32,000 nucleotides of DNA from Verrucomicrobiota bacterium (GCA_008932965.1 WBXG01000014.1:1-32000), one strand, 5' to 3'. Counted from the stretch's first letter, positions 1-31,983 are shown. Program-made: numbers and translations. Notes: a model not told the origin generated them from the sequence alone.

Positions 1-129
1 GGGTAAGGCAGGCGAGTATTTTGATGCAGGGCTGTATGTGTACATACTGCCCAAATCAAAATGGGAGTCTAACGCAGCATCCATCTGACTTCCCGGCTTC
101 CGTAGTAGATCGGTAGGAAATATGCGGGC
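1..129 (+). mobile_element. MITE-like repeat, right-hand about 129 bp of a copy cut by the window edge
   Basis: Aligns base-for-base with 16587..16715 (the copy inside hisD), with about 7 mismatches by manual alignment. Ends '...GGAAATATGCGGGC' followed by TA-G (130..132). Confidence 0.85.
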
Positions 130-185
130 TAGATTCTTTTATTCTTGAATACTTAGGATACTATCCCTCTTATCACCTCATCATT

Positions 186-1640
186 ATGTCTAAAACTCCA
201 ATCACAGTTGCCTACGGTGACGGTATCGGTCCTGAAATTATGGAGGCAACACTTCATATCATTGAGTCTGCTGGAGCCCAGCTCGAGATTGAACGAATCG
301 ACATTGGTGAAAAAATGTACCTAGCAGGTCATCCCACCGGCATAGATCCTTCTGCTTGGGAATCACTACGCCGTACCAAAGTTTTTTTGAAATCACCCAT
401 TACAACTCCTCAGGGAGGAGGCTTTAAGAGTCTTAATGTAACTGCAAGAAAAGCGTTAGGCCTTTATGCCAATGTACGTCCTTGTGTTAGCTACCATCCT
501 TTTGTTGCTACAAAACATCCTTTTATGGATGTCGTTATTATTCGAGAAAATGAAGAGGATCTTTATGCCGGTATTGAGCATCGTCAGTCCCAAGATGTGA
601 TTAGTTGTACTAAACTAATATCTCGTCCTGGATGCGAAAAAATTGTGCGTTATGCCTTTGAGTATGCACTCCTCAACAATCGTAAAAAAGTCACCTGCTT
701 CACTAAAGACAACATCATGAAGATGACCGATGGGCTCTTTCACAAAGTATTTGATGAAATTGCAATGGAGTATCCTGGTATCGAAAAGGAGCATTGGATT
801 GTCGATATAGGTGCTGCTAAACTTGCTGACACCCCACAGGTCTTTGATGTCATGGTCCTCCCTAATCTTTATGGGGATATTCTCTCTGATATAGCAGCTC
901 AGATTGCAGGCTCTGTAGGCCTGGCTGGCTCCTCGAATATTGGAAATAATGCGGCTATGTTTGAAGCTATCCACGGCTCTGCTCCCCGTCGAGCAGGTCA
1001 AAACCTAGCCAATCCCTCTGGTCTTTTTTTAGGAAGCATCCTCATGCTCCTACATATTGGTCAGGCAGAGGTTGCGGAGCGTGCCCATAACGCCTGGCTT
1101 TGTACCTTAGAGGAAGGAATCCACACTTATGATATTTTTGATGAAGCTGTAAGCCGACAAAAAGTCGGAACGAAGGAATTTGCGCTTGCCGTTGTTGCGC
1201 GCCTAGGCCAGAAACCTCAGCGCCTTAAACCAGTTTCCTACAAAAAAGAATCCCCTGCTCTTCATCGGATGGTTCCTTATTGTCGCCCCCAAGAAAAAAA
1301 AGAACTCATCGGCGCTGATGTTTTTATTGAACATCAAGGACAACTAGACGATCTCATTCCTCTTTTAGTACGATGCGGCATGGCTAAAGATAAAATGATG
1401 TTAGAAATGGTTGATAATCGAGGAATGATCGTCTGGCCTCAGAGACAGCCAGACCTTTTCTATTCTGATTCATTCCGGGCTCGTTATAAACTTCCAGACG
1501 GGACTCCAGGAGTGATCTCTCACAATAAGATAATTGAATTGCTCCAACGAATCACTTTGGAGAACTTAGAGTTTTTGAAAGTAGAACTTCTTTATAATTT
1601 CGATGGCCAGCCCGGATTTACAAGAGGACAGGGACAATAG
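186..1640 (+). CDS. icd: Isocitrate dehydrogenase (isocitrate/isopropylmalate dehydrogenase family, about 480-aa subclass with C-terminal extension)
   Basis: 484-aa ORF. Family signatures 'ITVAYGDGIGPEIM', 'IIRENEEDLYAG', 'NLYGDILSD' and 'GSVGLAGSSNIG'. The antisense ORF 615..1001 is a shadow ORF. Confidence 0.9.
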   Translation: MSKTPITVAYGDGIGPEIMEATLHIIESAGAQLEIERIDIGEKMYLAGHPTGIDPSAWESLRRTKVFLKSPITTPQGGGFKSLNVTARKALGLYANVRPCVSYHPFVATKHPFMDVVIIRENEEDLYAGIEHRQSQDVISCTKLISRPGCEKIVRYAFEYALLNNRKKVTCFTKDNIMKMTDGLFHKVFDEIAMEYPGIEKEHWIVDIGAAKLADTPQVFDVMVLPNLYGDILSDIAAQIAGSVGLAGSSNIGNNAAMFEAIHGSAPRRAGQNLANPSGLFLGSILMLLHIGQAEVAERAHNAWLCTLEEGIHTYDIFDEAVSRQKVGTKEFALAVVARLGQKPQRLKPVSYKKESPALHRMVPYCRPQEKKELIGADVFIEHQGQLDDLIPLLVRCGMAKDKMMLEMVDNRGMIVWPQRQPDLFYSDSFRARYKLPDGTPGVISHNKIIELLQRITLENLEFLKVELLYNFDGQPGFTRGQGQ

Positions 1641-1786
1641 AAATGGAAGAATCATCGTTAAGAAATTGCTTAGATAGTTTTGTTTGTTTACAGTTCTTAA
1701 CAACGGTGAGTTCTCGTAATTTTCTAACATCACTGAAATAGAAAAGCTCTCCTCTATCCTATATCTTCTATTTTTGAAGTTTTTCC

Positions 1787-4700: not shown

Positions 4701-5014
4701 TTTATGCGACTCGCGGAACAGCACGCACCTTGCAAGAGTCAGGCATTGAAGTTCTTCAACTCAACAGACTCAGTGAGGGACATCCGAATGTTTTGGACAT
4801 GATTCAAAAAAACAATGTTCATTTGATTATCAACACACCCTCGGGAAAATTACCGTGGAGAGATGAAGTTGTTATTCGAAGTGCGGCCGTTGCTCATAGA
4901 ATTGTCACAATCACAGTATTAAGAACAGCTATTGCAAGCGCTGCAGCAATTCGAAGCATGCTTGCAGGTGATCTTGAGGTACGTAGCATTCAAGAATATC
5001 ATCAATCTCTCTAA
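1787..5014 (+). CDS. carB: Carbamoyl-phosphate synthase large subunit
   Basis: 1075-aa ORF with duplicated ATP-grasp halves ('[17 protein letters not shown]' and '[17 protein letters not shown]'; '[22 protein letters not shown]' and '[22 protein letters not shown]') and a C-terminal MGS-like allosteric domain. Confidence 0.97.
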
Positions 5015-5130
5015 CAGCTAAGAATAATCGCTTGAAATTTAAGTTCAAATGTAGGAGGATTGTGGACTTGTGAACCTTTAGACCCCTCCACTCTTATCAA
5101 CCCCCTATAAAAAGTTAAATATACCCCACT

Positions 5131-6846: not shown

Positions 6847-6996
6847 TTTTTATCTCTATAGTGTCTCTTGATTTATGATAGTGGCAGCTACTTCTAATTG
6901 ATAAATAAGCTGCTACTAACAATTACTGGAACTAACTATTGTTGTTCTTTTATTGTCAGTAGCAGCAAATATGAAAAAAAACCATAGTGAACTCAG

Positions 6997-7171
6997 CTTC
7001 CCTATTTCACTCTAATCGTGACTAGGAGGCTGATGAAGCTGTAGGGTATGGCAAGTAATGAAAGTTTAACAACTGATGTGCGGATACACGCTGCACGAGG
7101 AAAACTTCGAGCTCAACAAATCTTCTATCAAGCTTCCTGGTATCCTTAGGTGATCGGCATGAAATAACTCC
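6997..7171 (+). mobile_element. Degenerate MITE-like repeat copy
   Basis: 'CTTCCCTATTTCACTCTAATCGTGACTAGGAGGCTGATGAAGCTGTAGGG...' parallels 'GCCCGGATATTTCATACTGATCGTGACGAGGAGGCCGCGGAGGCTGATGGGG...'. The right end '...CTTCCTGGTATCCTTAGGTGATCGGCATGAAATAACTCC-TA-G' parallels '...CTTCCCGGCTTCCGTAGGTGATCGTGATGAAATATGCGGGT-TA'. Heavily mutated. Confidence 0.6.
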
Positions 7172-7425
7172 TAGGAGCTTATTTGATTCAGAGGGAATAT
7201 TTGATTCTTTACTAAAGGATGTCGTTTCAAAATAGGTTTTGTGCTAGTAACAATTTTTTATAATAGGGTAATGTCCCCAATTAGCTACAGAGATTCTACT
7301 TCACAACTTTTTTACTAATATCAACAAATCAAATGGGTTGCTATACCAGTTTCAAAAACTTTTGAGATTCCTTCTAATTCCCTATTTCCTATTTTGATTC
7401 ATGTTTCTCAGTTTAAAATACTAGA

Positions 7426-7713: not shown

Positions 7714-7777
7714 GTTGAATTTTCTTAGAGCATTTTAAAAGAGTTATCCCGAATAATTCATCTCGATCTACTGCTTA

Positions 7778-8048
7778 ACCCGGATATTTCAAACTGGTTC
7801 GTCGCGAGGCGCTGCGAATCCTGATGCAGACACCACCGGCGGTCGGGAGACCGCGATGGAGACTGCCCTGGCTTTAAGGGGGCAGCCCTGAAAGGGCGAG
7901 ACGAGCGGGAGCGAGCGAGTCAACGCAGATGAGTATTTTGACGCAAGGCTGTTTGATTACATACTACCCAAGAAAGACTCCGAGCTTGGGCGAAGTATCC
8001 ATCATGGCTTCCCAGTCTCCGAATGTAATCGGCATGAAATATACGGGC
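7778..8048 (+). mobile_element. MITE-like repeat, long (271 bp) variant with an extra GC-rich internal module
   Basis: Left end 'TA|ACCCGGATATTTCAAACTGG', right end 'GGCATGAAATATACGGGC|TAG'. The right about 120 bp is homologous to 1..129. An extra module of about 100 bp lies at 7827..7925. TA flanks both sides. Confidence 0.85.
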
Positions 8049-9523
8049 TAGGCAGACTCTTCGGGACGGTAATCCCTCGTCTCAAAGCGAGTATATTCCT
8101 TAAGAAATGTTAACGGGACCTCACCGGTCGGTCCATTACGCTGCTTGGCAATGATGAGTTCAGCTTCACCCTCTTTTTCACTACGAAGAGCATCATCTTT
8201 TTCAAAATAAGCAGAACGATAAAGCAGACCCACGAGATCAGCATCTTGCTCAATTGAGCCAGACTCACGTAGATCAGATATACGTGGTTTCCCATCACTC
8301 CTTTTTTCTGATTCACGATTCAGCTGTGCTAAAACAATCACAGGAATTGATAGCTCTTTTGCCAATGCTTTGATTCCAGCTGAAATTTCAGCTATTTCAA
8401 TTTGACGATTATCTTGAGCTCTCTTGGAGTTGGATCTTAGCAACTGAAGGTAATCAATAATAATAAGGCTAAGATCGTGACGATCCTTCAATCTGCGTGC
8501 TTTTGCCCTTAGCTCCAAAATACTGAGTCCAGCAGTATCATCGATATAAATTTTACTTTTGGATAAAGCATCAGCGGCTCGAGAAAGATTTTTCATATCT
8601 TTACTTCCCATGAACCCATCACGCACTTTTTTTAAATCTACTTTGGCACGTGAACACAGAACTCGTTGAACAAGTTGTTGTGAGCTCATTTCCAGGCTAA
8701 AAATCCCTACTGATTTTTGAAGATCGATTGCTACATGCTCTGCAATATTCATTGCTAGGGCCGTTTTACCCATTGATGGACGAGCAGCAATCACAATCAT
8801 TTCACTAGCATGCATTCCATCTGTAAGCTGATCTAGGAAAGAAAATCCAGTAGAGAGGCCAGTAAGGGCACCTTTATTTTTGTGCATGCCTTCGATGGCA
8901 TCAATCGCCAAAAGCACCTGTTCTTTAATTTCAGGAAGAGCATTACTCACTCGAGATTCACTGATCTTAAAAATATTACTTTCAATAGTATCAACTAGCG
9001 TTTTGACATCACCTTGTTCTTCGTAACATTGAGCTGCTGCACTCGTGCATACAGCAATCATACTCCGTAGAAGAAATTTCTCCTGAACAATCTCTAGGTA
9101 ATATTCAATATTGGCTGCAGTCGGAATAAATTGAATTAAATGAGCCAATGCTGCAGGACCACCTACACCATCAAGAAGTTTTTGATCGGCTAGTGCCTGG
9201 GTCACCGTAATGAGATCAATCGGTTTTAATTCCTTCCATAGACCAACTAAGACGCTGTAGATGGTGGAGTGAGCAGGTTGATGAAAATAATTTTCATCAA
9301 TTTTTTCAATACAGAGAACTAACACCTCTCGAGGTGATAGAAGAATAGAACAAAGCACCCCCATTTCCGCATCAGGACTTGATGGTAGAGCACGATAGGA
9401 CTCAGGGAGGATTTTCTTAGCAACAAACTTGTTATCTCCTGCTTCTACCTTTTTTAGAACAGAGGGAGATTTTTTTCTTCCGCTAAATGCTCCCGCATCT
9501 GTATTAGAAGAAACGGACTCCAT
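8048..9523 (-). CDS. dnaB: Replicative DNA helicase DnaB
   Basis: 491-aa ORF. Walker A 'ARPSMGKTA', 'IIIDYLQL', 'QLNRESE', and N-terminal domain 'PSSPDAEMGVLCSILL'. It has an N-terminal extension of about 40 aa. The stop codon TAG (8048..8050) lies in the CTAG at the MITE junction. Confidence 0.95.
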   Translation of the reverse strand: MESVSSNTDAGAFSGRKKSPSVLKKVEAGDNKFVAKKILPESYRALPSSPDAEMGVLCSILLSPREVLVLCIEKIDENYFHQPAHSTIYSVLVGLWKELKPIDLITVTQALADQKLLDGVGGPAALAHLIQFIPTAANIEYYLEIVQEKFLLRSMIAVCTSAAAQCYEEQGDVKTLVDTIESNIFKISESRVSNALPEIKEQVLLAIDAIEGMHKNKGALTGLSTGFSFLDQLTDGMHASEMIVIAARPSMGKTALAMNIAEHVAIDLQKSVGIFSLEMSSQQLVQRVLCSRAKVDLKKVRDGFMGSKDMKNLSRAADALSKSKIYIDDTAGLSILELRAKARRLKDRHDLSLIIIDYLQLLRSNSKRAQDNRQIEIAEISAGIKALAKELSIPVIVLAQLNRESEKRSDGKPRISDLRESGSIEQDADLVGLLYRSAYFEKDDALRSEKEGEAELIIAKQRNGPTGEVPLTFLKEYTRFETRDYRPEESA

Positions 9524-9542
9524 AAGAGTATTTAGCTAAAAA

Positions 9543-10088: not shown

Positions 10089-10189
10089 AAATTAAAATGC
10101 AGAAAAAAATAATACTCGAAACAAACGCAATGCATTTTCGAGTGAGGATTCAAACTTAGCGAAGGGAAAAGCTAATCGATGAGGGGGTC

Positions 10190-10222
10190 GTCTGTCAATA
10201 TTGCATTATGAAATAGGCGGGC
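10190..10222 (+). mobile_element. MITE-like repeat, right-terminal fragment (possibly the end of a short degenerate copy starting near 10126)
   Basis: '...TTGCATTATGAAATAGGCGGGC|TAG' matches the family right terminus 'CAGTATGAAATATGCGGGC|TAG'. Upstream similarity is weak, so only the terminus is confident. Confidence 0.5.
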
Positions 10223-10228
10223 TAGTAC

Positions 10229-11011
10229 TTATTGAATTTTCTTGAGGTGTCGTTTCTTCAAACATTCTATGACATCAAAAAAATCACTATTGCACGCTTG
10301 CAAAAGCACAAGCATGTGAAAGAGCAGATCTGCTGTTTCATTAATGAGCTCGTGAGGTTTTTTACCTACGGCCGCAATAACGGTTTCTACTGCTTCTTCT
10401 CCCACTTTTTGAGCACAACGCTCTCTCCCCTCATTCAACAATTGAGTTGTATACCGAATCGGATCCGCCCCAGCCGTAGCACGCTCGGCAATGGTGGTGA
10501 TTAAGGTTTTTATAAATCCAAGATCCGTAGAGACCGGAGGCTGAAAGCAACTGGAATATCCCAAATGACAGGCGGGTCCTTTTGGCAAGACGAGCACAAG
10601 CAAAACATCATGATCACAATCCGTTCGAATAGATTGCACCTCCATACTATTGCCTGAGGTATCACCTTTGCGCCAAAGGGATTGTTTGCTACGACTCAAG
10701 AAGGTGACTTTTCGTGTGCTTACAGTTTGAACATACGCTTCTTGATTCATGTATCCTAACATTAAGACATCTCCTGTTTGTGCATGCTGAACAATTGCTG
10801 GAAGCAATCCTTTCATTTTTTCCCAATCTAATAGACTACTTTCACATTCTAGTGCAGCTGTGGTGAACTCAGAGGAACCAGCATGTCTCTCTTCGAGCAC
10901 CTCTTGTTCACTATGGGAATAAGCTTCTAAATTTCCCTCTTTTATATCAGCGGTAGCAACGTTGAAACTAGGTTCTCGTTGATCGACTATTGGCTTAGAT
11001 ATAATTTTCAT
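10229..11011 (-). CDS. hisIE: Bifunctional phosphoribosyl-AMP cyclohydrolase / phosphoribosyl-ATP pyrophosphatase
   Basis: 260-aa ORF. The HisI part is 'LLPAIVQHAQTGDVLMLGYMNQEA...SRSKQSLWRKGDTSGN...DCDHDVLL'. The HisE part is 'AQKVGEEAVETVIAA...ETADLLFHMLVLL'. It has a non-homologous N-terminal extension of about 60 aa, and an internal start (M66) is possible. Confidence 0.88.
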   Translation of the reverse strand: MKIISKPIVDQREPSFNVATADIKEGNLEAYSHSEQEVLEERHAGSSEFTTAALECESSLLDWEKMKGLLPAIVQHAQTGDVLMLGYMNQEAYVQTVSTRKVTFLSRSKQSLWRKGDTSGNSMEVQSIRTDCDHDVLLVLVLPKGPACHLGYSSCFQPPVSTDLGFIKTLITTIAERATAGADPIRYTTQLLNEGRERCAQKVGEEAVETVIAAVGKKPHELINETADLLFHMLVLLQACNSDFFDVIECLKKRHLKKIQ

Positions 11012-11017
11012 ATTTTT

Positions 11018-17801: not shown

Positions 17802-17879
17802 AAAATAGAAATTAGAATTTTTACTAGCGATAGAAGAGTTGATTCTTAAAGGAGAGTGATAGCTTGAGTCAATAGACTA

Positions 17880-18022
17880 ACCATACTATTTCATACTGAT
17901 TGTGACGAGTAGGTCGCGAAGGCTGTATGAGTCCCTACTTCCCGAGGAAGACTTCGAGCTTGGGCGCAACATCCACCCTTGCTTCCCGGCTTCTGCAGGT
18001 AATTGGTATGAAATATGCGAGC
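17880..18022 (+). mobile_element. MITE-like repeat, short (143 bp) variant between the uvrA stop and the hisG upstream region
   Basis: 'AC-TA|ACCATACTATTTCATACTGATTGTGACGAGTAGG ... CTTCCCGGCTTCTGCAGGTAATTGGTATGAAATATGCGAGC|TA-G'. It shares the internal 'GAGGAAGACTTCGAGCTTGGGCG' block with copies at 7778 and 20617. Confidence 0.85.
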
Positions 18023-18037
18023 TAGCAGGTGTGATTA

Positions 18038-20590
18038 TCAATGAGTCATATATTTTCCTGTCACACTTCTTGAACACGCAGCCACAGCCTCAGGCGTACC
18101 AGCAATGAGCAGCTCTCCCCCTCCGTCGCCTCCCTCAGGACCAAGATCAATCACCCAGTCAGCAGATTGAATCACAGCGATATGATGCTCGATGACAATG
18201 ACGGTATTTCCTCGATCGCGTAGTTGAAATAAGACTTCCAAGAGTTTTTGAATATCACTTGCGTGCAGTCCTGTGGTCGGCTCATCGAGCAAGTAGAGCG
18301 TCTTTCCTGTTTCTCTTTTGCCAAGTTCAGCAGCTAACTTAAGACGTTGTGCTTCTCCTCCAGAGAGAGTTGTCGCTGATTGTCCTAATTTTAGATAGCC
18401 AAGGCCGACTTCGTGGAGTCGCGCTAATTTTCGATGGATCACGGGAATGGCTCTAAAAAAAGAAAGTGCTTCTTCAACATTCATCTCCAGCACATCTGCA
18501 ATACTGCGCCCTTTAAAGGTAATTTCAAGAGCTTCACGTTGAAAGCGTCGTCCTTCGCAAACATCACAAGGGACAAAAACATCGGCTAAGAAATGCATTT
18601 CAATACGACGCATCCCCTCACCCCGACAATGCTCACAACGGCCACCTTTTACATTACAGGAAAAATATCCTGGTCTATATCCACGCACTTTTGCAGCTGG
18701 TAAATTCGTGAAAAGATCGCGAATCAACCCAAAAATTTCGATGTAGGTTGCAGGATTGGAGCGTGGTGTCTTCCCAATAGGGCTTTGATCAACAACAATG
18801 ATTTTATCAATCTGTTCGCAACCCAAAAGAGTATCATGCTTACCGACTGCTATTTTAGAATGATGGAGTTGCTTCATCACAGCTGGATAGAGAATTTTAT
18901 TCACAAGCGTTGATTTTCCACTTCCGGAGACTCCTGTAACAGACGTCACGAGGCCTATTGGAAATCCAACAGTGAGATTTTTTAAATTATTTTCACAAGC
19001 TCCCACAACCGTAATCCAGCCAGGATGAGGGGCTAGGAGAGGTGGAGCTGAACACCGTTTTGCAGGAGCCCCAATCCTTAATGCTCCGCTCAAGTAACGA
19101 CCCGATAAGGAACGCGGGTTTGCGATGATTTGCTCCAGTGTTCCTGCAGCCATGATCTCTCCCCCCTCTAATCCAGCTCCAGGACCCATATCAATAATGT
19201 AATCGGCTGCACGCATCGTCTCCTCATCATGCTCCACCACAATCACACTATTTCCTAAATTTCGCAAATCATAGAGAGTCTTGAGTAGACGTGTGTGATC
19301 ACGTGGATGCAGACCAATACTCGGTTCATCTAGAACATAGAGAACACCTGAGAGAGCTGATCCCACTTGTGTTGCTAAGCGAAGACGTTGCGTCTCACCA
19401 CCCGAGAGCGTCCCACTTTCACGATGGAGTGTTATATAACCAAGCCCTACCTCTTCTAGAAAATGCAACCGTTTTAGAATTTCTTGAATCACTTCTTGAA
19501 CGACCAGATATTCAGATTCCGAAAAGAAAATATGTTCACATACTTTTTTTGCCTGAGTGAGTGAGAGTTGACAGAAATCATGAATGTTCCACTCACGTCG
19601 ATACTGCTCGGTTTGCTCGACAATGGTCACTGCTATTATTTCAGGACGAAAACGCTTCCCCTGACAGACAGGACAAATCAACGTTTTAGAAGGATGAGGG
19701 AGCAGCCCCCCTCCTTGGCAATGGGGACAGGCTCCTAGCAGACTATTAAAAGAAAAACTTTTGGGAATCAGCGGAGGCATTGTAAAGCCAGTTTTAGGAT
19801 TACAAAAATCAGTGGAAAAATAACGTTCTTCCCAAAGGTCACTTCCTGGGCATTGTGTCAAATTTAGGATACGATTTTTTCCCCACCGTAAGGCAGTGCC
19901 AAGAGAATCGTGCAAACGTTGTCCAATACCCTCTCCGACAATGAGCCGATCTACCACCACTTCCAGCTGGTGTACTTTCTTTTTTGAAAAAGAAAAAGTA
20001 TCCGCTTCCTCAGTACTCACGATAGTCCCATCAATCCGCATCCTTACGAATCCTTCACGCCGCACGCGGTCCAGCACCTCTTCATACGACTCACCTTCAG
20101 CACGCGCAAGTGGAGAGAGGAGCATCATCCTTGTTCCTGTAGGAAATTTTAAAATCTCATCAGCAATTTGTTGGAGTGACTGTCTTTGAATAACCTCCCC
20201 ACTTTTGGGATCATGTGCTACTCCTACAGATGCAAAAAGGAGCCTCAAATAATCATAGATTTCTGTTGTTGTAGCGACCGTTGAACGAGCACTAGGAGAG
20301 GCCATATGTTGACCGATAGCAATGGCAGGTGATAATCCCTCAATAAAGTCAACATCTGGCCGTTGCAAGCGATCAAGAAACTGACGTGCATAGGCAGAAA
20401 GAGTCTCTACATAACGCCTCTGCCCTTCGGCAAAAAGGGTATCAAAGGCCAGAGAGGATTTTCCCGAACCACTTGGTCCAGTGATCACCACCAACTGATT
20501 TTTAGGAATCGAGAGATCGAGGTTTTTTAAATTATGCTGACGTGCTCCTTTAATACGAATAACGCCCGAAGAGGAAAAAATATTTTTCAT
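18038..20590 (-). CDS. uvrA: Excinuclease ABC subunit A (short, 850 aa; lacks the insertion domain)
   Basis: Two ABC ATPase modules: Walker A 'GPSGSGKSS' and 'GVSGSGKST', signatures 'LSGGETQR' and 'LSGGEAQR', Walker B 'LYVLDEPSIGLH' and 'LYLLDEPTTGLH'. The C-terminal zinc module is 'CEHCRGEG...CDVCEGRR'. Confidence 0.95.
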   Translation of the reverse strand: MKNIFSSSGVIRIKGARQHNLKNLDLSIPKNQLVVITGPSGSGKSSLAFDTLFAEGQRRYVETLSAYARQFLDRLQRPDVDFIEGLSPAIAIGQHMASPSARSTVATTTEIYDYLRLLFASVGVAHDPKSGEVIQRQSLQQIADEILKFPTGTRMMLLSPLARAEGESYEEVLDRVRREGFVRMRIDGTIVSTEEADTFSFSKKKVHQLEVVVDRLIVGEGIGQRLHDSLGTALRWGKNRILNLTQCPGSDLWEERYFSTDFCNPKTGFTMPPLIPKSFSFNSLLGACPHCQGGGLLPHPSKTLICPVCQGKRFRPEIIAVTIVEQTEQYRREWNIHDFCQLSLTQAKKVCEHIFFSESEYLVVQEVIQEILKRLHFLEEVGLGYITLHRESGTLSGGETQRLRLATQVGSALSGVLYVLDEPSIGLHPRDHTRLLKTLYDLRNLGNSVIVVEHDEETMRAADYIIDMGPGAGLEGGEIMAAGTLEQIIANPRSLSGRYLSGALRIGAPAKRCSAPPLLAPHPGWITVVGACENNLKNLTVGFPIGLVTSVTGVSGSGKSTLVNKILYPAVMKQLHHSKIAVGKHDTLLGCEQIDKIIVVDQSPIGKTPRSNPATYIEIFGLIRDLFTNLPAAKVRGYRPGYFSCNVKGGRCEHCRGEGMRRIEMHFLADVFVPCDVCEGRRFQREALEITFKGRSIADVLEMNVEEALSFFRAIPVIHRKLARLHEVGLGYLKLGQSATTLSGGEAQRLKLAAELGKRETGKTLYLLDEPTTGLHASDIQKLLEVLFQLRDRGNTVIVIEHHIAVIQSADWVIDLGPEGGDGGGELLIAGTPEAVAACSRSVTGKYMTH

Positions 20591-20616
20591 AACATCACAA
20601 ATCCTTACCTAAACTA

Positions 20617-20795
20617 ACCCGGATATTTCATGCTAATGGTGACGAGGAGGCCGCGAAGGTTGATAGAGGAGGGCACGCGATCAAGTCTGACGAGATAGGC
20701 GTTTGTACACACTGCCCAAGGAAGACTTCGAATCCAACGCTCTATTCATAGAGCTTTGCACATGCCTTTATAAATTGAGTGTGAAATATCCGGTA
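20617..20795 (+). mobile_element. MITE-like repeat, 179-bp copy between tRNA-Ser and the uvrA start
   Basis: 'AC-TA|ACCCGGATATTTCATGCTAATGGTGACGAGGAGGCCGCGAAGG ... GAGTGTGAAATATCCGGT(A)|TA-G'. The right boundary is ambiguous by 1-2 nt. It starts 26 nt upstream of the uvrA ATG. Confidence 0.85.
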
Positions 20796-20829
20796 TAGCG
20801 GAGCAGTCGCATTCATGAGTAACAAAAAC

Positions 20830-20916: not shown

Positions 20917-21047
20917 TAAGATTATTATTTCAAGAGCGAGGATTCTGTAAGAGAGGACTCGCAAGGTCAACTTGAAAGCTGCTTAGGAATAAAAATAGGG
21001 GTATCCCAACATGGGGTTCCTACTCTACTCTCTAACTATTCATTTTT

Positions 21048-22097
21048 ATGATGACTTCAATGCCTCCTGTTAAGACAACTGCGAAACAACTCCTTATTAC
21101 CGGATCTACCGGCTTTGTAGGACGCAATTTGCTGATTCACGCTCTGAAGGATCCGAGCTGGTCTCAAATCATTCTTCCTGTCAGAAATCCAAAGAAACTT
21201 CTTGAACAACTCCACCAGGATCATCTCCATGGGTATTTAGATCGCTTGCACCTCTGCACCGTGAGCAACAATACATGGAACTTAGAAGGGATCGAGGATC
21301 TTGACCTAGCGATTCACTGTGCTGGACTCACCTTCTCTCGTGACCGAGATCCTTATTTTGCAACACATGTAGAGGGCTCTCTCCATCTGCTAGAATCACT
21401 CCCAAAGCACTCGCGTCTCCTTGTACTCTCCTCCCAATCAGCAGCTGGACCGAGCTCTAAGATTATCCCAATACGTAGAGAAAACCATCTTGAAAAACCC
21501 CTCACCTGGTATGGAAAATCGAAATTAGCAATGGAAAAAAATCTCTCGCTGCTCGCCTATGAACGGCTTCTTATCCTGCGTCCTCCTATGATTCTTGGCC
21601 CCCGTGATACGGCGACAGTTCCCCTTTTTAACATGGCTAAGGGACGAGTACGTTTTAAACCTGGTTTTAAAAAAAAGGAATATAGTTGGATTGCGGTCGA
21701 TGACTTATGTGATGCAATACTTCTTGCTGCAAGGAACGATTGGAGCTCCCTTCCCCAGCGTTGTTATTTTTTAGCACATCCAAAAACATTGACTGATGTC
21801 GCATTGCTTAAGACAACAGCTGAAATAATTCATGCAAGTGGTATTACTCTTCCTTTACCTCATGCTCTGATCCAATGCATTTCAAGAGTAGCTGATCTGG
21901 TACCAACGCTGAGAGAAGCCCTTCCTAGCTTGGGTCGTGATCGGGTTAAAGAAATATTTGAACAGCGTTGGGTGATTGATGGAAAACCTTTCGAACGCGA
22001 TTTTCAGTGGAAAGCTCAAAAAGATCTTCGTGAGACTTTACAAGAAACAGCTGTTTGGTTAGAGAGAAACAGAAGTTCGAAGAGTAAATCGCAATAG
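21048..22097 (+). CDS. NAD(P)-dependent epimerase/dehydratase family (extended SDR) protein
   Basis: 349-aa ORF. Rossmann motif 'LLITGSTGFVGRNLL' and catalytic 'YGKSK' (YxxxK). The substrate cannot be determined from sequence. Confidence 0.8.
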   Translation: MMTSMPPVKTTAKQLLITGSTGFVGRNLLIHALKDPSWSQIILPVRNPKKLLEQLHQDHLHGYLDRLHLCTVSNNTWNLEGIEDLDLAIHCAGLTFSRDRDPYFATHVEGSLHLLESLPKHSRLLVLSSQSAAGPSSKIIPIRRENHLEKPLTWYGKSKLAMEKNLSLLAYERLLILRPPMILGPRDTATVPLFNMAKGRVRFKPGFKKKEYSWIAVDDLCDAILLAARNDWSSLPQRCYFLAHPKTLTDVALLKTTAEIIHASGITLPLPHALIQCISRVADLVPTLREALPSLGRDRVKEIFEQRWVIDGKPFERDFQWKAQKDLRETLQETAVWLERNRSSKSKSQ

Positions 22098-22162
22098 GAT
22101 TCTAACACAGCATCCATCTGAATTCCCGGCTTCCGTAGGTGATCGTGATGAAATATGCGGGT
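22098..22162 (+). mobile_element. MITE-like repeat, right-half fragment filling the gap between two convergent stop codons
   Basis: 'GATTCTAACACAGCATCCATCTGAATTCCCGGCTTCCGTAGGTGATCGTGATGAAATATGCGGGT|TA' matches the right 65 bp of 16538..16715. It starts immediately after the epimerase TAG, and its last base plus the flanking TA form the TAA stop of the 743-aa ORF. Confidence 0.85.
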
Positions 22163-24393
22163 TAAGGAAACGCTGGAACCGTGTAGGGAATATCACCTGC
22201 ATAGGGATAAAGATTGATGACATAAAGTCCACTTGAAGAGCCGGTAGGGTCGCCCCCTTTTTCTTTTGCGTTAAGCACTCGTTGATAAGCTTCGCAAGCA
22301 ATTCTTGTGACTCTTGCTTGCATTTCTGGATGATCTTCATAGTGACGCATGACGCAATAGATAGCTTTTAATTCAGCCAGTCGTTCTTGGACGTAAGGTT
22401 CTATGGGATCACTAGAAGGACTTGAATTTTTGAGTTTTTGATAATGATTTTTTATATCACTGAGTACATTTTGATAACTCAGCTCTTGGGTGGTTACTCT
22501 GGGGCCAGGCTTATAGAGCAATTGACCATCTGATTGTGATTGGCTTTCCAATTTATTTGCATAGGTGATTTCGGCACGGCTTTTAGAGTTTAAGTAGCGA
22601 GCACTTAAATAAACAGTAAATTGTCTAGGCATCGAAGCAGAAGTAACGACTCGATTTACTATTTTAAAAGTACGACTTTCAAAACCGACCCCTGAAGTGA
22701 TTTCCTCGTTGAGTTGGTCTTCATTCTCTACGCTATCTTGGGCTTGATGCGCTATTTCAGGAAGATTGTCGGCGCTTGTCATTCCCAATAAATGTCGGGT
22801 GTCATCGACTAAATGAACCACATCATGAGTTAAATCATTACCTGTTCCATGTAACGCAGCCTCTGAAGCATAATAACCAGATAAAAGAAATAATTCATGG
22901 CTGAGTGCTTCTGAATAGGGAATCCCAGTCGCAGCAACGGCATGATCGATCACACCACCCACAAGAGTATTCTGAATACTTTCACCTAGCATGGCACCAA
23001 CAGTTGTATGATATGCAATATTAGCACCAGCATTGGCACCCGTGAGAGCATTCACATCACTCTGGGGGCTCAAGGCCTCATCAACCTTAGCATCCCAATA
23101 AGTTGTTACATAACCAACACCCCAACCAGCAGCCACCCCTGCAATGATACCAATCCCGAGAGCTCCAACCGGAAGTAATGCCGTGCCAAGGGCTCCTGTT
23201 GCCAGTGGTGCTCCCAAGTGTGCTACAGCAGTAGTAACTGCAGGGCCAACTGAGTAGCCTTTTAAAAGCATTCCTATTTTGATGAGATCTCCAGGGGTTT
23301 TTAGTAACTCTTTTCCAGTTTCAGTCAGTTTCTTTAAACAGCGTTGTTCCTCAAGTGATAGTTTTTCAAATTTTTCCTCTGCCTCACATCTTACACGATT
23401 TTCTCTGTGTTCGCTCAGTATACCCGATTGCAAAGGAATGAGTTCAGCCACGCGATCCAAACCTGCGTAACAGTCATCGATCATCGCTTTTGCTTGACGA
23501 TAGCCTAGAGGAGAGTTCGGCTCGTGTTGAAGAAAGGGTTGAGGGAGTTGATCTCCAAATTGAGCTTGAATGGCTTGAGAAAATCTTTTCCAGATCGCTC
23601 GTGACTGATCTTCCGTTGGTGGTTCTTGTTGAAAAAGTATTTTATTCTCTTCATCTGTTAGCAAAAAACCATCCTCCTCTTGGCATAAAATATCAGTAAA
23701 AGGCTTCAGTAAATGGTGAGCATTCTCTCTAGCGCTCTGAGCAAGAACATAAGTCCCCTCCAGCATCTCCTCTCTGGCTTGGGGATCTAGATTTTTAATA
23801 TCTTCAAACGCATCACTCAGTGAATGAGCTACCTCATTAAAAGCTGGAGGTTCCTGATTTGAGGAGTGGCTAGAAATCTGCCCAACTTGCTCTGCCTCTC
23901 TTGTTTTGATTTCTTGAAAAGCTTGGTAAGCCTCTAAGGCAACTCTAGAAATCTCATTTTTGACTTTTTCTAAGTTCTCCGCTGAAGAGTTGTTAGGAAT
24001 CCCTACCTTGATTCTAATAGCTTCCTCGTGAAATTTTTTAAGATTGTTGTTAGGTGAACGATCACTTCTGGAATTTTTTTGAAGCTCCTTATCCATGATT
24101 TGTATTGCTTTGATTTTGGTTATAGCAAGGCTCCTAATTGCCTCACGATCATCATTCTCTTGTTCACCATTGTGATGATTGTAATAGGAGCGATTGGTAT
24201 ATCCAAACCAACTACCCAAAAAGGAGAGACGACTCCTTTCCGTTTCTTTCACTTTTCCTGAGGAATTATTGGGCGATACTTGCTTCAATGATCCAGAAGA
24301 ACTGACAGTGGCATTATCATTAGATTTAGAGGTAAAGGGATAAAAACTAGGTAAACTAGAAATAATCCGCGAAAATAAATTTTGTGCGCTCAT
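22162..24393 (-). CDS. Hypothetical 743-aa protein with a Ser/Asn-rich N-terminus, helical middle region and central glycine-zipper hydrophobic hairpin
   Basis: Long uninterrupted ORF with no family motif that I recognise. Residues about 372-433 read 'IGMLLKGYSVGPAVTTAVAHLGAPLATGALGTALLPVGALGIGIIAGVAAGWGVGYVTTYW'. There is no classical signal peptide. Confidence 0.7.
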   Translation of the reverse strand: MSAQNLFSRIISSLPSFYPFTSKSNDNATVSSSGSLKQVSPNNSSGKVKETERSRLSFLGSWFGYTNRSYYNHHNGEQENDDREAIRSLAITKIKAIQIMDKELQKNSRSDRSPNNNLKKFHEEAIRIKVGIPNNSSAENLEKVKNEISRVALEAYQAFQEIKTREAEQVGQISSHSSNQEPPAFNEVAHSLSDAFEDIKNLDPQAREEMLEGTYVLAQSARENAHHLLKPFTDILCQEEDGFLLTDEENKILFQQEPPTEDQSRAIWKRFSQAIQAQFGDQLPQPFLQHEPNSPLGYRQAKAMIDDCYAGLDRVAELIPLQSGILSEHRENRVRCEAEEKFEKLSLEEQRCLKKLTETGKELLKTPGDLIKIGMLLKGYSVGPAVTTAVAHLGAPLATGALGTALLPVGALGIGIIAGVAAGWGVGYVTTYWDAKVDEALSPQSDVNALTGANAGANIAYHTTVGAMLGESIQNTLVGGVIDHAVAATGIPYSEALSHELFLLSGYYASEAALHGTGNDLTHDVVHLVDDTRHLLGMTSADNLPEIAHQAQDSVENEDQLNEEITSGVGFESRTFKIVNRVVTSASMPRQFTVYLSARYLNSKSRAEITYANKLESQSQSDGQLLYKPGPRVTTQELSYQNVLSDIKNHYQKLKNSSPSSDPIEPYVQERLAELKAIYCVMRHYEDHPEMQARVTRIACEAYQRVLNAKEKGGDPTGSSSGLYVINLYPYAGDIPYTVPAFP

Positions 24394-24652
24394 GATAAAT
24401 CAGTAGAAAAGAAATTACTCGGTAGTATTACTATGGACCCAATATCCGATAGATTCTTAAGATAGTAAGAGGAAATAAAAGAAGGTAGGATGCCCTCATT
24501 TCTAGAATGCGTTACAGCTATCTTGGTAATACAGATCAAGGACCTTGTTAAAATTGGTCAAAACTGATTTTTTATTCAAATATTTTTTACCCTCACTTTC
24601 CGTAACGAAATCTAGCACGCTCTTCTTGAGCAGTTGTGTTGATACAATCACC

Positions 24653-27025
24653 ATGCATTACCTTATTATTATTTTTCTTTTTCACTTAGGAGTTTTAGTA
24701 GCTCAAGAAACAACAATTTCTACTTCTTCCAAAGCAGTTGAACCTCTCAACCAAACTTCAACACGAGCCGAACTCTCCTCAAAGCTTCTATTAGAGCAAA
24801 AGCAATCCTCCCTTTCTGCCAAGTCTACCACTACAGGACCAGGAACTGACCTTGCTAACCAAGCTTCGTTAGAGAAATTACCCCACGTCTCGGCAGCAAT
24901 TTTACGAACAAAACTCCAGCAGGAGAAGGATCCCTCACAACGCCATCAAATAGCGTTACGTCTTGCAGAGATTCTACTCCAGGAACAACGTCCCGCTGAG
25001 GCTCTCTCAATCCTAGAGTCGAAGGATATTGACTCACCTCAAGAGGGAGAGCAGGACACGATGGTTCTATTCTGGAAAGCTCAAGCCCTACTTGCATTGC
25101 AGCGGCCTGCAGAGGCTATTGCATTACTTGAAAAACTAGTTTTGATATTTCATTCCAATCTCACTCCAGAACTTTCCACTCAACAAACTCAAGATTATCT
25201 CGAAGCCTCTCAAATGAGCTTAGTTCGTGCCTACCGTGCACAAAGTGACTTTGCAAAAGCCATATCAGTGCTCGATACTATTACTCCCAATGGCCCCATG
25301 GCGGCTCTAGTCTTGCAAGAACGAATAGCAACTTTACTAGCCCTTCAAAAAAACAGTGATGTTGAACAACTCTTTAAAACCATCTCACCACAGACACTTT
25401 CAAAGCAACCACGCCTGGCCTATCTTTTTGCGCTATGTGCAGCACAACAAGGGGACAATACTGAAGCTCTGAAGCGATTTTCAAAAGTGGAGGCTGTTGA
25501 TCCTTGGACCTCCTCCGCTGCTATTTCAGGAATCGTTCATTGTGATATTTCCCTTAATAAACCTGCGGAAGCACAATTAATTTTAGAAAAATATTTGCAA
25601 GAGAATCCAGAATCTCCACGGGTAGCAGAATTGATGACTCAGTTAGAGCAGCTCTATATTCTTCAAAATAACAATGACATAACCCTTTTTCAAAAGTGGT
25701 CCCAAGATACAACACAACCCTGGCGTGCCTCCTATGCGCTACTTCCCTACGCACGAACCATGGAACGTCTTGGACATCGAGATAAAGCCGATGAATTGTG
25801 CACCATTTTTTTAACCACCTATCCTCATCATGCCCTTAACAATGAGGCTTTATTAGAACTGGCTCAGAGCAAACTCTTGCAAGGAGATCCTCAAGGAGCC
25901 CTCTCCTATATTGGTGATAGACCTGATATGGCTTCTTCAATGCGGGCCCGCTACGCTTTTCAAAGGGGTTTAGCAGAATCAGCATTGAAACATCCTGAAC
26001 AAGCCAAAAAAGCGTTTATTGAAGCGGCTTCTTTTGATCCCCATCTCTCAGAGGATGCCTTGTACAATCAATCGCTTCTTCAAATTACCCCTGACATTGA
26101 GAATTCCATGACACCACTCAAAAATGCACACGACCAAAATGCTCATGAAAATGAGGAGTATCTAGCTGTTCTTTCCACAGATCAAGGAACTCGTCAAAGT
26201 GCAATTTCAGTGATTAAAGCATCTCGTCATTTTCTAGAAACCTACCCTCAATCCCCCTTCTCCAATGAAGTGAGGATGAAACTGGGGGAAGCCTTGCTGG
26301 CCTTTGGCAATGTTAGGGAAGCACGCTTAGAACTAGAAACAGTAGGAAAATTAGAGCCTTCTTCTGAACTAGGAAGGCAAGCACTTTTCCTAGCTGCCCA
26401 AGCAGCGTCACGCAGCATGGATCCTAAGTCCATTGATGATGCTTTGATGCTTTTAGAACAAATCGCTCAAAGCCCTCATGCAGGAGCTGATGTTTGGCAA
26501 GCAAGATTAGATCAAGCTGCGTTAAAAAATGCTCAAGCATTGCCACTAGAAGCAATTGCTATTTACGATCAGATTTTGGCTTCACAGGAACCCTCTCCTC
26601 AATTACGTAATACCGCACACATGGCAAAAGGAGACACGCTCTATGGACTGGGCACCAAAGATCGTGCTAATTATCAAGCGGCCATCAACGTCTGGCGCCA
26701 GCTAGCCGATGAACCCAACATCGCTCCCTACTGGCGCAATCAAGCGCTCTGTAAAATAGGATTAACTGATGAAAAATTAGGCGATGTCGACTCTGCTCTT
26801 ACAGCTTATTATGAAGCACTGAAGACTCCATTAAACCAAGAAACAGAGCTGCTCTGGCATGATAAATCAGCTTTTGAAGCAGCACGCTTGTTAGAGTCAA
26901 GAAAGCAATGGAGTGAAGCAATTCGACTTTATCAACAAATTGTTTCTGAAGGGGGCCCTCGTGCTTATGAGGCGCAGGAAAAAGTGAGCAAGCTTCGTTT
27001 AGAGAATTTTCTCTGGGAAAAATAG
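24653..27025 (+). CDS. Secreted tetratricopeptide-repeat (TPR) protein
   Basis: The ORF track starts at a TTG (24545). The ATG at 24653 gives a typical signal peptide 'MHYLIIIFLFHLGVLVAQE'. The remainder has many 34-aa TPR-like helical repeats ('AEALSILE', 'AEAIALLEKL', 'GDNTEALKRFSKVEAVDP', 'PEQAKKAFIEAASFDP', 'WSEAIRLYQQIV'). Confidence 0.75.
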   Translation: MHYLIIIFLFHLGVLVAQETTISTSSKAVEPLNQTSTRAELSSKLLLEQKQSSLSAKSTTTGPGTDLANQASLEKLPHVSAAILRTKLQQEKDPSQRHQIALRLAEILLQEQRPAEALSILESKDIDSPQEGEQDTMVLFWKAQALLALQRPAEAIALLEKLVLIFHSNLTPELSTQQTQDYLEASQMSLVRAYRAQSDFAKAISVLDTITPNGPMAALVLQERIATLLALQKNSDVEQLFKTISPQTLSKQPRLAYLFALCAAQQGDNTEALKRFSKVEAVDPWTSSAAISGIVHCDISLNKPAEAQLILEKYLQENPESPRVAELMTQLEQLYILQNNNDITLFQKWSQDTTQPWRASYALLPYARTMERLGHRDKADELCTIFLTTYPHHALNNEALLELAQSKLLQGDPQGALSYIGDRPDMASSMRARYAFQRGLAESALKHPEQAKKAFIEAASFDPHLSEDALYNQSLLQITPDIENSMTPLKNAHDQNAHENEEYLAVLSTDQGTRQSAISVIKASRHFLETYPQSPFSNEVRMKLGEALLAFGNVREARLELETVGKLEPSSELGRQALFLAAQAASRSMDPKSIDDALMLLEQIAQSPHAGADVWQARLDQAALKNAQALPLEAIAIYDQILASQEPSPQLRNTAHMAKGDTLYGLGTKDRANYQAAINVWRQLADEPNIAPYWRNQALCKIGLTDEKLGDVDSALTAYYEALKTPLNQETELLWHDKSAFEAARLLESRKQWSEAIRLYQQIVSEGGPRAYEAQEKVSKLRLENFLWEK

Positions 27026-27027
27026 AT

Positions 27028-27085
27028 TCCATAGCTCCTCATCATTACGATCAGTATGAAACATCCAGGTTGACCCGGATATTTC
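27028..27085. repeat. Back-to-back MITE terminal remnants (an inverted left-type end abutting a direct left-type end)
   Basis: 27037..27070 'CCTCATCATTACGATCAGTATGAAACATCCAGGT' is the reverse complement of the family left end 'ACCCGGATATTTCATACTGATCGTGACGAGGAGG', about 30/34 by eye. After 'TG', 27073..27085 'ACCCGGATATTTC' is a direct left end that stops after 13 nt. Confidence 0.6.
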
Positions 27086-27113
27086 TATTTTTTTCTATCC
27101 TCGAAATTTCTCT

Positions 27114-28208: not shown

Positions 28209-28287
28209 AGGCTGCCACAGCTACCATCTTTACACCTGCTTTCCGCTTGCTCCTCTTGACTCTAGCCTATAGCCTCCAGGCTTCTTT

Positions 28288-31008: not shown

Positions 31009-31019
31009 AGCATTTCTTC

Positions 31020-31886
31020 ATGAAGACAGAGAGCTTTTTTCTTCTCAAGCTTCAGGCTCCCGATCGCATCGGTCTACTTGCCTCCATTACAAACCTTATC
31101 GCAAAGCATCAGGGAAACTTAGTAGAGGTGCAACAGTATACGAGCACGCTTGATAAGGTATTTTTTGGACGTCTTGCTTTTGAAATTTCAGGACTCGACA
31201 AAATTGAAGAACTCAAAAAAAATATCTCTCTTCTCGCACAAGAGATAGAAGCTCAATGGACATTACGAGATCAGAGTGTTCCATTAAAGACAATCTTGCT
31301 TGTGAGTAAAACAAACCACTGTCTTGCCGATCTTCTTTGGCGCTGGCGATCTCAAGAACTCAACATCGCCATTCAATCTGTGATTTCTAATCATGAGGAT
31401 TTACGCTCCGAAGTCGAACGCGAAGGATTACCTTTTCATTATTTCCCAATCCCCCAGGAAGCCGCACTAAAAGAACAAGCCTTACAACAGATGGCGGCCA
31501 TGATTCGTCGTGAATCGGCAGAACTTCTTGTGATGTGCCGCTACATGCAAGTGCTCCCTGCATGGTTGTGTGAAGAGTATAAAAATCGAATTATCAATAT
31601 TCATCATTCCCTTTTACCAGCCTTTGTGGGAGCAGATCCTTACAGACAGGCCTACAATCGAGGAGTGAAGCTCATTGGAGCAACATGCCATTATGCTACC
31701 GAGCAGCTTGATGCAGGCCCCATCATTCATCAAGAGATGCTTCGAATAGAACATTTCCATTCGTTAAATGATATACGACGCCTCGGTCGTGATTGTGAAA
31801 AACTAGCACTAGCACGAGGAATTCGTTTTCATGCCGATGACCGTGTTCTTGTTTACGATGGGCGATCTATCGTGTTTGGAGATTAA
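31020..31886 (+). CDS. purU: Formyltetrahydrofolate deformylase
   Basis: 288-aa ORF. N-terminal ACT domain 'LKLQAPDRIGLLASITNLIA' and formyltransferase core 'IINIHHSLLPAFVGADPYRQA' and 'GVKLIGATCHYATEQLDAGPII'. Confidence 0.93.
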   Translation: MKTESFFLLKLQAPDRIGLLASITNLIAKHQGNLVEVQQYTSTLDKVFFGRLAFEISGLDKIEELKKNISLLAQEIEAQWTLRDQSVPLKTILLVSKTNHCLADLLWRWRSQELNIAIQSVISNHEDLRSEVEREGLPFHYFPIPQEAALKEQALQQMAAMIRRESAELLVMCRYMQVLPAWLCEEYKNRIINIHHSLLPAFVGADPYRQAYNRGVKLIGATCHYATEQLDAGPIIHQEMLRIEHFHSLNDIRRLGRDCEKLALARGIRFHADDRVLVYDGRSIVFGD

Positions 31887-31934
31887 GTAAAATGGTAGAC
31901 TCGATCATAATAATAGAGCCTCCTATATTCTCCT

Positions 31935-31983
31935 TCATTCTGACCGGCCCCTCACGACCAATCAGTATCAAATATCCGGGGGC
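31935..31983 (-). mobile_element. MITE-like repeat, truncated copy in inverted orientation
   Basis: 'CCCCTCACGACCAATCAGTATCAAATATCCGGGGGC|TA-A' matches the reverse complement of the family left end 'GCCCGGATATTTCATACTGATCGTGACGAGGAGG'. I recognise no element sequence further upstream. Confidence 0.6.

Follow-up and report, generated by a model that had tools for sequence, protein, structure and literature searches.

The window analyzed here, a stretch of 32,000 nucleotides from a Verrucomicrobiota bacterium (GCA_008932965.1 WBXG01000014.1:1-32000), derives from an uncultured freshwater verrucomicrobial lineage, its species being that of the metagenome-assembled genome (MAG) GCA_029866255.1. 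It is crowded with copies of a short palindromic repeat, one of which lies within the gene hisD. The question raised by this locus is what kind of mobile element the repeat represents, which target sequence it duplicates upon insertion, and how so heavy a load of it is tolerated. The initial annotation classified the repeat as a miniature inverted-repeat transposable element (MITE) of the IS630/Tc1-mariner type, which would duplicate the dinucleotide TA. The first part of this classification is upheld by the terminal inverted repeats (TIRs) of the element, by its target duplication, by empty sites in sister lineages and by the failure to find a transposase, all described below, while the second part has to be revised: the duplicated target is the 4-bp sequence YTAR (where Y is C or T, and R is A or G), and not TA alone. 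The family is probably one of non-autonomous hairpin MITEs with a 4-bp YTAR duplication, which would be, or would once have been, moved in trans by a DDE-type transposase.

Element structure and the duplicated target site

The unit of the family runs from CCCGG to CCGGG and has a modal length of 176 bp (60 of 141 copies), with mini forms of about 60 bp and long forms of about 270 bp. The family termini are CCCGGATATTTCAT and the TIR sequence is CCCGGATATTTCATACTGATC; the TIRs extend over about 22-25 nt, and those of the reference copy in hisD (inverted-repeat pair I5) have arms of 25 nt that are 96% complementary, which agrees with the repeat of about 22 bp first proposed. The termini are almost invariant in an alignment of 61 sequences (A2), and positions 1-3 of the element are C in 66-69 of 69 copies, while the last three positions are G in 67-68 of 69.

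The duplicated target was determined from 141 full copies with recognisable termini, by reading the 4-mers that directly abut CCCGG on the left and CCGGG on the right. The flanking 4-mer conforms to YTAR on the left in 129 of these copies and on the right in 124, and the left and right 4-mers are identical in 84 of them, the shared sequence being TTAA in 54 cases and CTAG and the non-palindromic TTAG in 15 cases each. If TA alone were duplicated, the bases outside it would belong to the target and the bases inside it to the element, and the two would be independent of each other. Instead, the left and right flanks agree at position 1 in 75+17 of 114 copies (Fisher p 8e-7) and at position 4 in 64+41 of 121 copies (Fisher p 4e-16), and this matching of outer and inner bases implies that the duplication comprises the 4-bp YTAR and that the element itself begins with CCCGG. 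The TA that had been noticed immediately outside both ends does flank 66-67 of 69 full copies, drawn from several genomes, on both sides, as the core of this longer target.

Comparisons of filled and empty sites lead to the same result. In one nested insertion (locus L082), the sequence ...GAGT CTAA CGCAG... of the host copy has become ...GAGT CTAA [CCCGG...CCGGG] CTAA CGCAG.... At hisD, the closest relative without the element (L088, 86-90% nucleotide identity) has the empty site ...GCAGGCTCG CTAA GTCGATACC..., which corresponds in the window to ...GCAGGCTCG CTAG [176 bp] CTAG GTCGATACC..., the flanks otherwise matching; BLAST aligns the same four L088 bases to either side of the window's element. 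A more distant relative, the Deming MAG, has TTAA and no element at the hisD insertion point. The single uninterrupted target that was expected at empty sites is thus found in both relatives, but what aligns on both sides of the insertion is a run of four bases and not TA alone. Tandem copies have one YTAR in common between neighbours, which is what the re-use of a duplicated target would produce.

The unit is also a hairpin over its full length. The reference copy folds into a single long hairpin of -99 kcal/mol (z = -10.3), compared with a weaker fold of -75.5 kcal/mol for its opposite strand, and this strand asymmetry recurs in 70 of 71 copies (means -86 vs -72 kcal/mol) and is consistent across subtypes A, B and C. 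These subtypes appear as a mosaic in the alignment, and their arm types each fold over the full length, forming about 60 Watson-Crick and 7 G-U pairs. The two arms are of the same type in 42 copies and of different types in 7, and swapping arms in silico costs 10-20 kcal/mol. Folding by subtype combined with arm swapping was used in place of RNAalifold, which recovers only the terminal stem from a mixed-subtype alignment because the subtypes are not structurally alignable. Every subtype is a full-length hairpin with co-varying arms; this hairpin may have been selected or may be a by-product of the palindromic origin of the MITE.

The length variants are built on the same plan. The form of about 270 bp carries a GC-rich module of 90 bp, always at the same position, and the mini forms, at about 60 bp, are reduced to the two terminal repeats joined by a short loop, with YTAR or degenerate YTAR-like flanks (L021 3176, L046 7391, L054 1434, L070 7685, L071 7530). 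One mini was found in a different verrucomicrobial MAG (GL74), whose fetched 8 kb otherwise contain no full copies.

Copies in the window, distribution and age

Copies were detected with a profile obtained by iterative nhmmer searches seeded with the 16537-16716 copy, and the profile was applied to the window and its relatives. In the window it unites into one repeat family seven clear copies, two significant remnants and one weak remnant, which bears out the initial count of about ten; repeat detection in the window likewise recovers the copies first noted. They are as follows.

1-128, + strand: copy cut by the window edge, of which the right-hand 128 bp remain, followed by CTAG at 129-132; nhmmer 2-130, corresponding to model positions 52-180, E 1e-31 to 1e-35; 1-132 is 95% identical to 16587-16718.
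6995-7175, + strand: degenerate full-length copy in the spacer between an FGE-sulfatase-like gene and tatA; nhmmer 7003-7166, E 3e-19 to 5e-22.
7779-8047, + strand: long variant of 269 bp with a GC-rich internal module of about 90 bp at 7830-7917, flanked by TTAA 7775-7778 and CTAG 8048-8051; nhmmer 7777-8049, E 2e-30.
10204-10223, + strand: right-end terminal remnant of 20 nt (17/20 matching), followed by CTAG; E 0.42, not significant alone.
16535-16718, + strand: reference copy in hisD, with CTAG 16535-16538, the 176-bp unit CCCGG...GCGGG 16539-16714 and CTAG 16715-16718; nhmmer 16537-16716, E 4e-51.
17881-18021, + strand: copy of 141 bp with an internal deletion in the uvrA/hisG spacer, flanked by CTAA 17877-17880 and CTAG 18022-18025; nhmmer 17887-18023, E 9e-21.
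20618-20794, + strand: full-length copy in the tRNA-Ser/uvrA spacer, with CTAA 20614-20617 on the left and a degenerate right end (CCGGT, then ATAG); nhmmer 20616-20793, E 7e-31.
22087-22161, + strand: right half-copy between convergent genes, followed by TTAA 22162-22165; nhmmer 22087-22162, E 4e-13.
27037-27071, - strand: terminal remnant; nhmmer E 4e-5.
31935-31980, - strand: terminal remnant downstream of purU; nhmmer E 4e-4; inverted-repeat pair I17 (20 nt, 95%).

In a related MAG, a full copy (L006 6814-6995) occupies the equivalent spacer upstream of rplI, about 60-70 bp nearer to rplI than the 10204-10223 remnant. The orthologous spacer of the Deming MAG lacks the 20618-20794 copy, and the final codons of the open reading frame (ORF) 21048-22097 fall inside the 22087-22161 remnant. 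A comparison with Rfam, which might have revealed a named equivalent or a known structured RNA, left the repeat unmatched: the scan of the window at the gathering threshold returned tRNA-Ser only, and the reference copy had no match at E<=1.

The distribution of the family was examined by a terminal-repeat pattern scan of 185,579 species genomes, which returned at least 86 stretches; the counts given here refer to the regions fetched and not to whole genomes. The matches listed come nearly all from freshwater MAGs of the Chthoniobacterales/'Spartobacteria', principally Kiruna_bin-02438, Tobar2m-G38 and Deming_bin.170, in the fetched parts of which the profile finds at least 90, 77 and 25 copies, with single loci in SMAG_U8253 and in a Lake Tanganyika MAG. 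The window and the 86 loci from the genome scan contain at least 205 non-redundant matches in 593 kb, metagenome contigs contain at least 282 in 734 kb (81 of the 85 listed loci having a profile match), and overall there are more than 480 non-redundant matches, copies and fragments included, in about 1.4 Mb of related freshwater Chthoniobacterales MAG and metagenome DNA. Loci from other phyla that had matched by chance (Bacteroidota, Clostridia and others) gave no profile match, and blastn against 72,556 plasmids gave no match to the repeat. Among the matches listed, the family is restricted to the Chthoniobacterales lineage.

In the window's species, 43 copies were counted in 95.7 kb (the window and four further loci), which is one copy every 2.2 kb, or 6.2% of the sequence, a density that is biased upwards because the four loci were picked via a copy; the window alone has one match per 3.6 kb, or about 4% of its DNA as the sum of hit lengths. 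To our knowledge, one copy per 2-3.6 kb and 4-6% of the DNA place this family among the densest bacterial MITE loads. The suggestion that the density of the window might extrapolate to hundreds of copies genome-wide was sound and, given the at least 90 copies in the fetched part of a single MAG, is probably an underestimate. A literature search on MITEs in Verrucomicrobia or Chthoniobacterales, or on bacterial MITEs with TTAA or CTAG targets, found nothing relevant. With no match in Rfam, among the plasmids or in the literature searched, the repeat family is new, although it belongs to a known kind of element, the prokaryotic MITE.

The copies have no coding capacity for a transposase, the ORFs inside them being translated repeat sequence only, and a search with the repeat peptide for further host proteins returned mostly spurious small ORFs. 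Public annotation of the MAGs records the family only as dozens of 'hypothetical proteins' of 40-110 aa called on the repeats (K9M81_, QE493_, DVB29_; P0135-P0192), which are almost certainly spurious gene calls. The lineage is uncultured but widespread in freshwater, and spurious calls on repeats pollute both the gene calls and the protein-family statistics for these MAGs.

The age of the insertions can be bracketed by comparison with relatives. None of the window's copies occurs in the 16.8-kb his-operon region of the Deming MAG, and L088 lacks the hisD copy, while in four same-species contigs (96-99% identical) every window copy within their covered stretches is present; copies are 91-92% identical to their nearest neighbours at the median and 97-98% at most. 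Absence from sister lineages together with retention within the species implies activity after the species split, and nothing shows that it is ongoing. The view that the family has recently been active therefore holds in the sense that insertions post-date the split from sister species, but not in any stronger sense, given their presence in all same-species contigs that cover them and the divergence between copies.

The search for an autonomous partner was negative throughout. Inverted TIR pairs spaced 0.3-5 kb apart enclose housekeeping genes only (among them those for GyrA, an aldolase and an aminopeptidase), an all-vs-all comparison of ORFs for multi-copy candidates recovered orthologues only, and so did a search for pairs of ORFs sharing at least 80% identity in otherwise unrelated surroundings. 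The window was initially described as free of transposase genes, and no transposase Pfam family appears in the gene tables for the region (L089, L090), nor in the gene tables for about 110 kb from the window's species (five further loci included) and Deming, a survey that included no dedicated IS630 probe search. In 1.47 Mb, tblastn with approximate probes, which gives a weak negative, reached a best E of 2.1 with IS5 InsH and of 0.6-1.0 with Trichoplusia ni piggyBac and ISEcp1.

Other features of the window and its relatives were observed in passing. In hisC (14188-15414, - strand) there is an in-frame insertion of 153 bp, or 49 aa, at 15138-15290, which is absent from the L088 and Deming orthologues and is bounded by CTAG/TTAA with imperfect inverted ends (about 17/22). 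The family profile detects neither this insert nor an N-terminal extension of hisIE (10229-11011), whose product has 260 aa in the window and 217 aa in the Deming MAG. The hisC insert may be an older or related MITE, in which case two consecutive his genes carry in-frame inserts. The product of uvrA (18038-20590) has 850 aa in the window and 905 aa in Deming, where an ABC-transporter gene that is not in the window lies between uvrA and hisG. The ORF 22162-24393 encodes a protein of 743 aa with no Pfam family and adjoins the gene of an 826-aa protein (24545-27025) whose N-terminus looks hydrophobic and whose same-species orthologue has TPR-repeat Pfam matches; an inverted repeat of 31 nt and 94% identity (I1) pairs 23502-23532 with 24756-24786 across the shared upstream region of these two genes. 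Lastly, the same-species contig L090 (97% identical) loses synteny from about its position 19104, exactly at the left end of the 7779-8047 element (window 7778), and beyond the break has a TPR gene in place of tatA and the FGE-sulfatase-like gene; the break marks either a recombination event at one of the repeats or an error of metagenome assembly there.

Insertion into genes, strand orientation and competing explanations

Copies occupy spacers of every type (convergent, tandem and divergent) as well as ORFs, in which they occur on either strand, and 10 of 71 full copies (about 14%) lie within long ORFs. In the hisD copy, which was read directly, and in all nine in-ORF copies that were re-examined, the reading frame takes the target as a leucine codon, and in either orientation the element translates to L[AT]RIFHTD...YEI[SC]GL, the two orientations giving the same peptide because the element is nearly its own reverse complement. 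Since the unit and its duplication together measure 176 + 4 = 180 bp, exactly 60 codons are added and the frame is kept. The hosts include HisD, the essential PheT, GlnD and two PMT-like glycosyltransferases, the inserts in PheT and GlnD being clearly internal; in the ORFs of RnpA and PyrF the segment precedes the recognised domain and may extend the N-terminus instead of interrupting the protein. The best documented host is the gene in the window:

15414-16892, - strand: hisD, 492 aa, with a MITE-derived segment of 60 aa at residues ~59-118.

The copy adds exactly 60 codons in frame to this gene, orthologues without the insert having 433 aa, and the ORF is intact in the four same-species contigs. 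Its product belongs with a 99%-identical cluster from a 'Verrucomicrobiae bacterium' MAG and has 88%-identical relatives of 433 aa in the Chthoniobacterales. In an AlphaFold2 model of the 492-aa protein, the pLDDT exceeds 90 over most of the core and is below 50, with no secondary structure, at residues 66-119; the fold around the insert is thus confidently predicted, and the insert itself is predicted, with low confidence, to lack regular structure. The dN/dS of the insert is uninformative, there being only 2 substitutions. As a separate observation, the closest hisD homologues beyond a few Chthoniobacterales relatives are almost all from Legionella/Tatlockia, with identities of 51-56% over the full query and 61-66% over the part downstream of the insert, and this similarity of sequence suggests that his genes may have been transferred horizontally between Legionella/Tatlockia and this lineage.

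Element ends also coincide with gene ends. At 56 of 558 element ends (10%), the duplicated target serves as the stop codon of an adjoining ORF of 100 codons or more, compared with 1.6% of all YTAR sites in the same DNA. Two cases occur in the window: the stop codon of dnaB (ORF 8048-9523) is the reverse complement of 8048-8050, in the CTAG flank of the long variant, and the TAA stop of ORF 22162-24393 is supplied by TTAA 22162-22165.

The orientation of the copies is not random. The seven clear copies in the window all have one orientation and the two significant remnants the opposite one, and among neighbouring copies separated by more than 300 bp, counted over all loci, the orientation is the same in 26 cases and differs in 11. 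When GC skew is computed with the elements masked, the better-folding, G-rich strand of the element lies on the locally C-rich strand of the genome in 35 of 43 copies of the window's species, a bias that extends to all confidently oriented copies (96 of 143, p 5e-5) and persists when counted by locus (43 vs 19, p 0.003). No comparable bias exists with respect to neighbouring genes, either in tandem contexts (12 vs 9) or inside ORFs (10 vs 10). In most bacteria the G-rich strand is the leading strand, a rule unverified for this lineage; if it applies, the weaker hairpin would form on the lagging-strand template, as might be expected if strong hairpins are selected against there, or if insertion is linked to replication. 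The combination of this bias with a stronger hairpin on one strand makes the family a case in which the tolerance of long imperfect palindromes, or replication-coupled insertion, can be studied.

These results can be brought together in a single mechanism. A DDE-type transposase would mobilise, or would once have mobilised, the elements in trans, making a cut at YTAR with a stagger of 4 nt, and such a cut would leave each insertion flanked by a duplicated YTAR. Because YTAR contains TAA or TAG, an insertion at the stop codon of a gene would regenerate the stop, and because YTA is a leucine codon and the element is open in that frame both ways, an insertion within a gene would add 60 residues and leave the frame unbroken. 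Stop regeneration and the open leucine frame would together account for the tolerance of a load amounting to 4-6% of the DNA, including the copies in hisD, pheT and glnD.

Several observations weigh against this mechanism or against the duplication on which it is founded. Palindromic targets such as TTAA and CTAG cannot separate a 2-bp from a 4-bp duplication copy by copy, and the 4-bp assignment therefore depends on the statistics, together with the non-palindromic targets and a single nested insertion. Target use is asymmetric with respect to the element's two ends, with 15 TTAG/TTAG copies and 0 CTAA/CTAA copies in element orientation, and neither this asymmetry nor the orientation bias relative to GC skew (96 vs 47) is what a simple DDE-mobilised MITE should show. 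None of the copies is very young, nearest-neighbour identity being at most 98%, and no insertion polymorphism was found among same-species contigs, which leaves current mobility unproven. Finally, neither an autonomous element nor a transposase came to light in the roughly 1.47 Mb of lineage DNA from MAGs and metagenomes, whether through TIR-bounded ORFs, multi-copy ORFs, Pfam or BLAST, although multi-copy insertion sequences (ISs) often drop out of MAG assemblies, so this failure is no proof of absence.

In a more specific version of the mechanism, which we regard as improbable, the transposase is an undescribed prokaryotic enzyme whose chemistry resembles that of piggyBac, cutting YTAR/TTAA with a 4-nt stagger, acting on CCC...GGG ends and perhaps excising seamlessly. 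Its action, or the survival of its products, would be coupled to replication, and this would account for the strand bias, while the element would have evolved to be coding-neutral, with a leucine frame open in both orientations and a length of 3n when the duplication is counted, and could in this way colonise the leucine and stop codons of essential genes.

A different kind of explanation, to which we give a similarly small weight, is that the hairpin is kept for a function in the host, as a signal for RNA stability or processing or as a structural site in the DNA, so that the repeat is not selfish and its mobility is ancient. The predominance of matched arms, which preserve a full hairpin that would lose 10-20 kcal/mol on swapping, would be understandable on these terms, as would the consistent folding asymmetry in all three subtypes and the lack of young copies or of a transposase; matched arms may, however, equally stem from a palindromic MITE origin. 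A host function also sits badly with the positions of the copies, which are not conserved in sister lineages (the Deming his region being without those of the window) and which fall in every gene context, and with the many copies that are decaying remnants and the absence of an Rfam match.

Less likely again is the IS630/Tc1-mariner model, according to which TA is duplicated within an NTAN or CTAG target and the element has the termini R-CCCGG...CCGGG-Y. MITEs derived from IS630 elements are known, TA flanks both ends of nearly all full copies, and at the palindromic TTAA and CTAG this model predicts the same sequence as the 4-bp model. It founders on the flanks in which the two models differ: the outer and inner bases that it requires to be independent match, each of the 15 TTAG...TTAG copies would have needed non-complementary termini G...T together with a matching target, and the nested L082 insertion duplicates CTAA. 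The gene tables, moreover, show no IS630-like gene, though no dedicated IS630 probe search was made. Least probable is a single-strand element of the IS200/IS605 type, or one resembling repetitive extragenic palindromic (REP) sequences or PATEs, moved at replication forks by a Y1 (HUH) transposase, which keeps a very small probability because of the orientation bias that it would explain together with the full-length, strand-asymmetric hairpin, but elements of this type are without terminal inverted repeats and do not duplicate their target, whereas the present family has TIRs and the same variable 4-mer on both flanks, with one copy of it at empty sites, and no Y1 transposase or RAYT gene occurs in the gene tables.

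Comparison with known systems

The family has the general properties of prokaryotic MITEs, being short (<~500 bp), multi-copy and non-coding, with TIRs, a target duplication and empty sites in relatives. Two more specific assignments were considered and rejected. Derivation from IS630/Tc1-mariner elements implies an exact TA duplication, which is at odds with the co-variation of the flanks, the TTAG/TTAG copies and the nested CTAA. REPs are palindromes of 20-40 bp with one end tagged GTAG or CGTC (PMC3733652), and a unit of about 176 bp that has CCCGG at its ends, is bounded by TIRs and duplicates 4 bp of its target matches neither these REP/RAYT systems nor IS200/IS605 PATEs, a discrepancy in size and ends that also counts against single-strand transposition. 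The 4-bp YTAR target thus points away from IS630 and towards cutting of the IS5-like or piggyBac/IS1380-like kind, and can guide the hunt for the transposase.

A duplication of exactly 4 bp is known from IS701-family elements (PMC2266710), and the duplicated target motif of IS5 is YTAR itself (PMC10359306). The present family shares this 4-bp YTAR duplication with the IS5 group but differs from it in using TTAG and never CTAA in element orientation, and no IS5-like transposase was found here by tblastn with an approximate probe or in the gene tables. The ends probably differ as well, with GG or GA at the start of IS5-group ends and CCCGG at the start of those of the present family.

The piggyBac transposon has TTAA targets and CCC/GGG termini, and the IS1380 transposases are its distant prokaryotic relatives (PMC10140906). 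The present family resembles this group in that TTAA is its commonest duplicated target (54 of the 84 perfect duplications) and its ends are CCC...GGG. It departs from it in that CTAG and TTAG (15 each) are also used, the target being YTAR instead of strictly TTAA, and in that tblastn with approximate probes found no such ORF in 1.47 Mb. The resemblance is a lead and not evidence of descent.

In their general character, the elements are close to the Correia/NEMIS elements of Neisseria, and to RUP and ERIC, which are likewise hairpin-forming, TIR-bounded repeats of 100-200 bp with high copy numbers and mosaic subtypes, often located at gene ends. Those elements duplicate TA, whereas the present family duplicates YTAR, and its density of 4-6% of the DNA is probably above that of Correia elements.

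The closest parallel for the insertions within genes is provided by the Rickettsia palindromic elements (RPEs), which measure about 150 bp and often lie, in frame, within metabolic and housekeeping genes that are unrelated to one another (PMC10969869). The family described here is similarly palindromic and similarly inserted in frame in housekeeping genes, with 10 of 71 full copies in ORFs such as those of HisD, PheT and GlnD. It differs in its clear-cut TIRs and 4-bp duplication and in its occurrence in Verrucomicrobiota that are, as far as is known, free-living in freshwater; there is no indication of sequence relatedness, the sequences not having been compared directly. RPE-like insertion into housekeeping enzymes is thereby extended to another phylum, and the leucine and stop codons contained in the target, the open frame of the element and the 180-bp length of the insert provide a rationale for such insertion at the level of the sequence.

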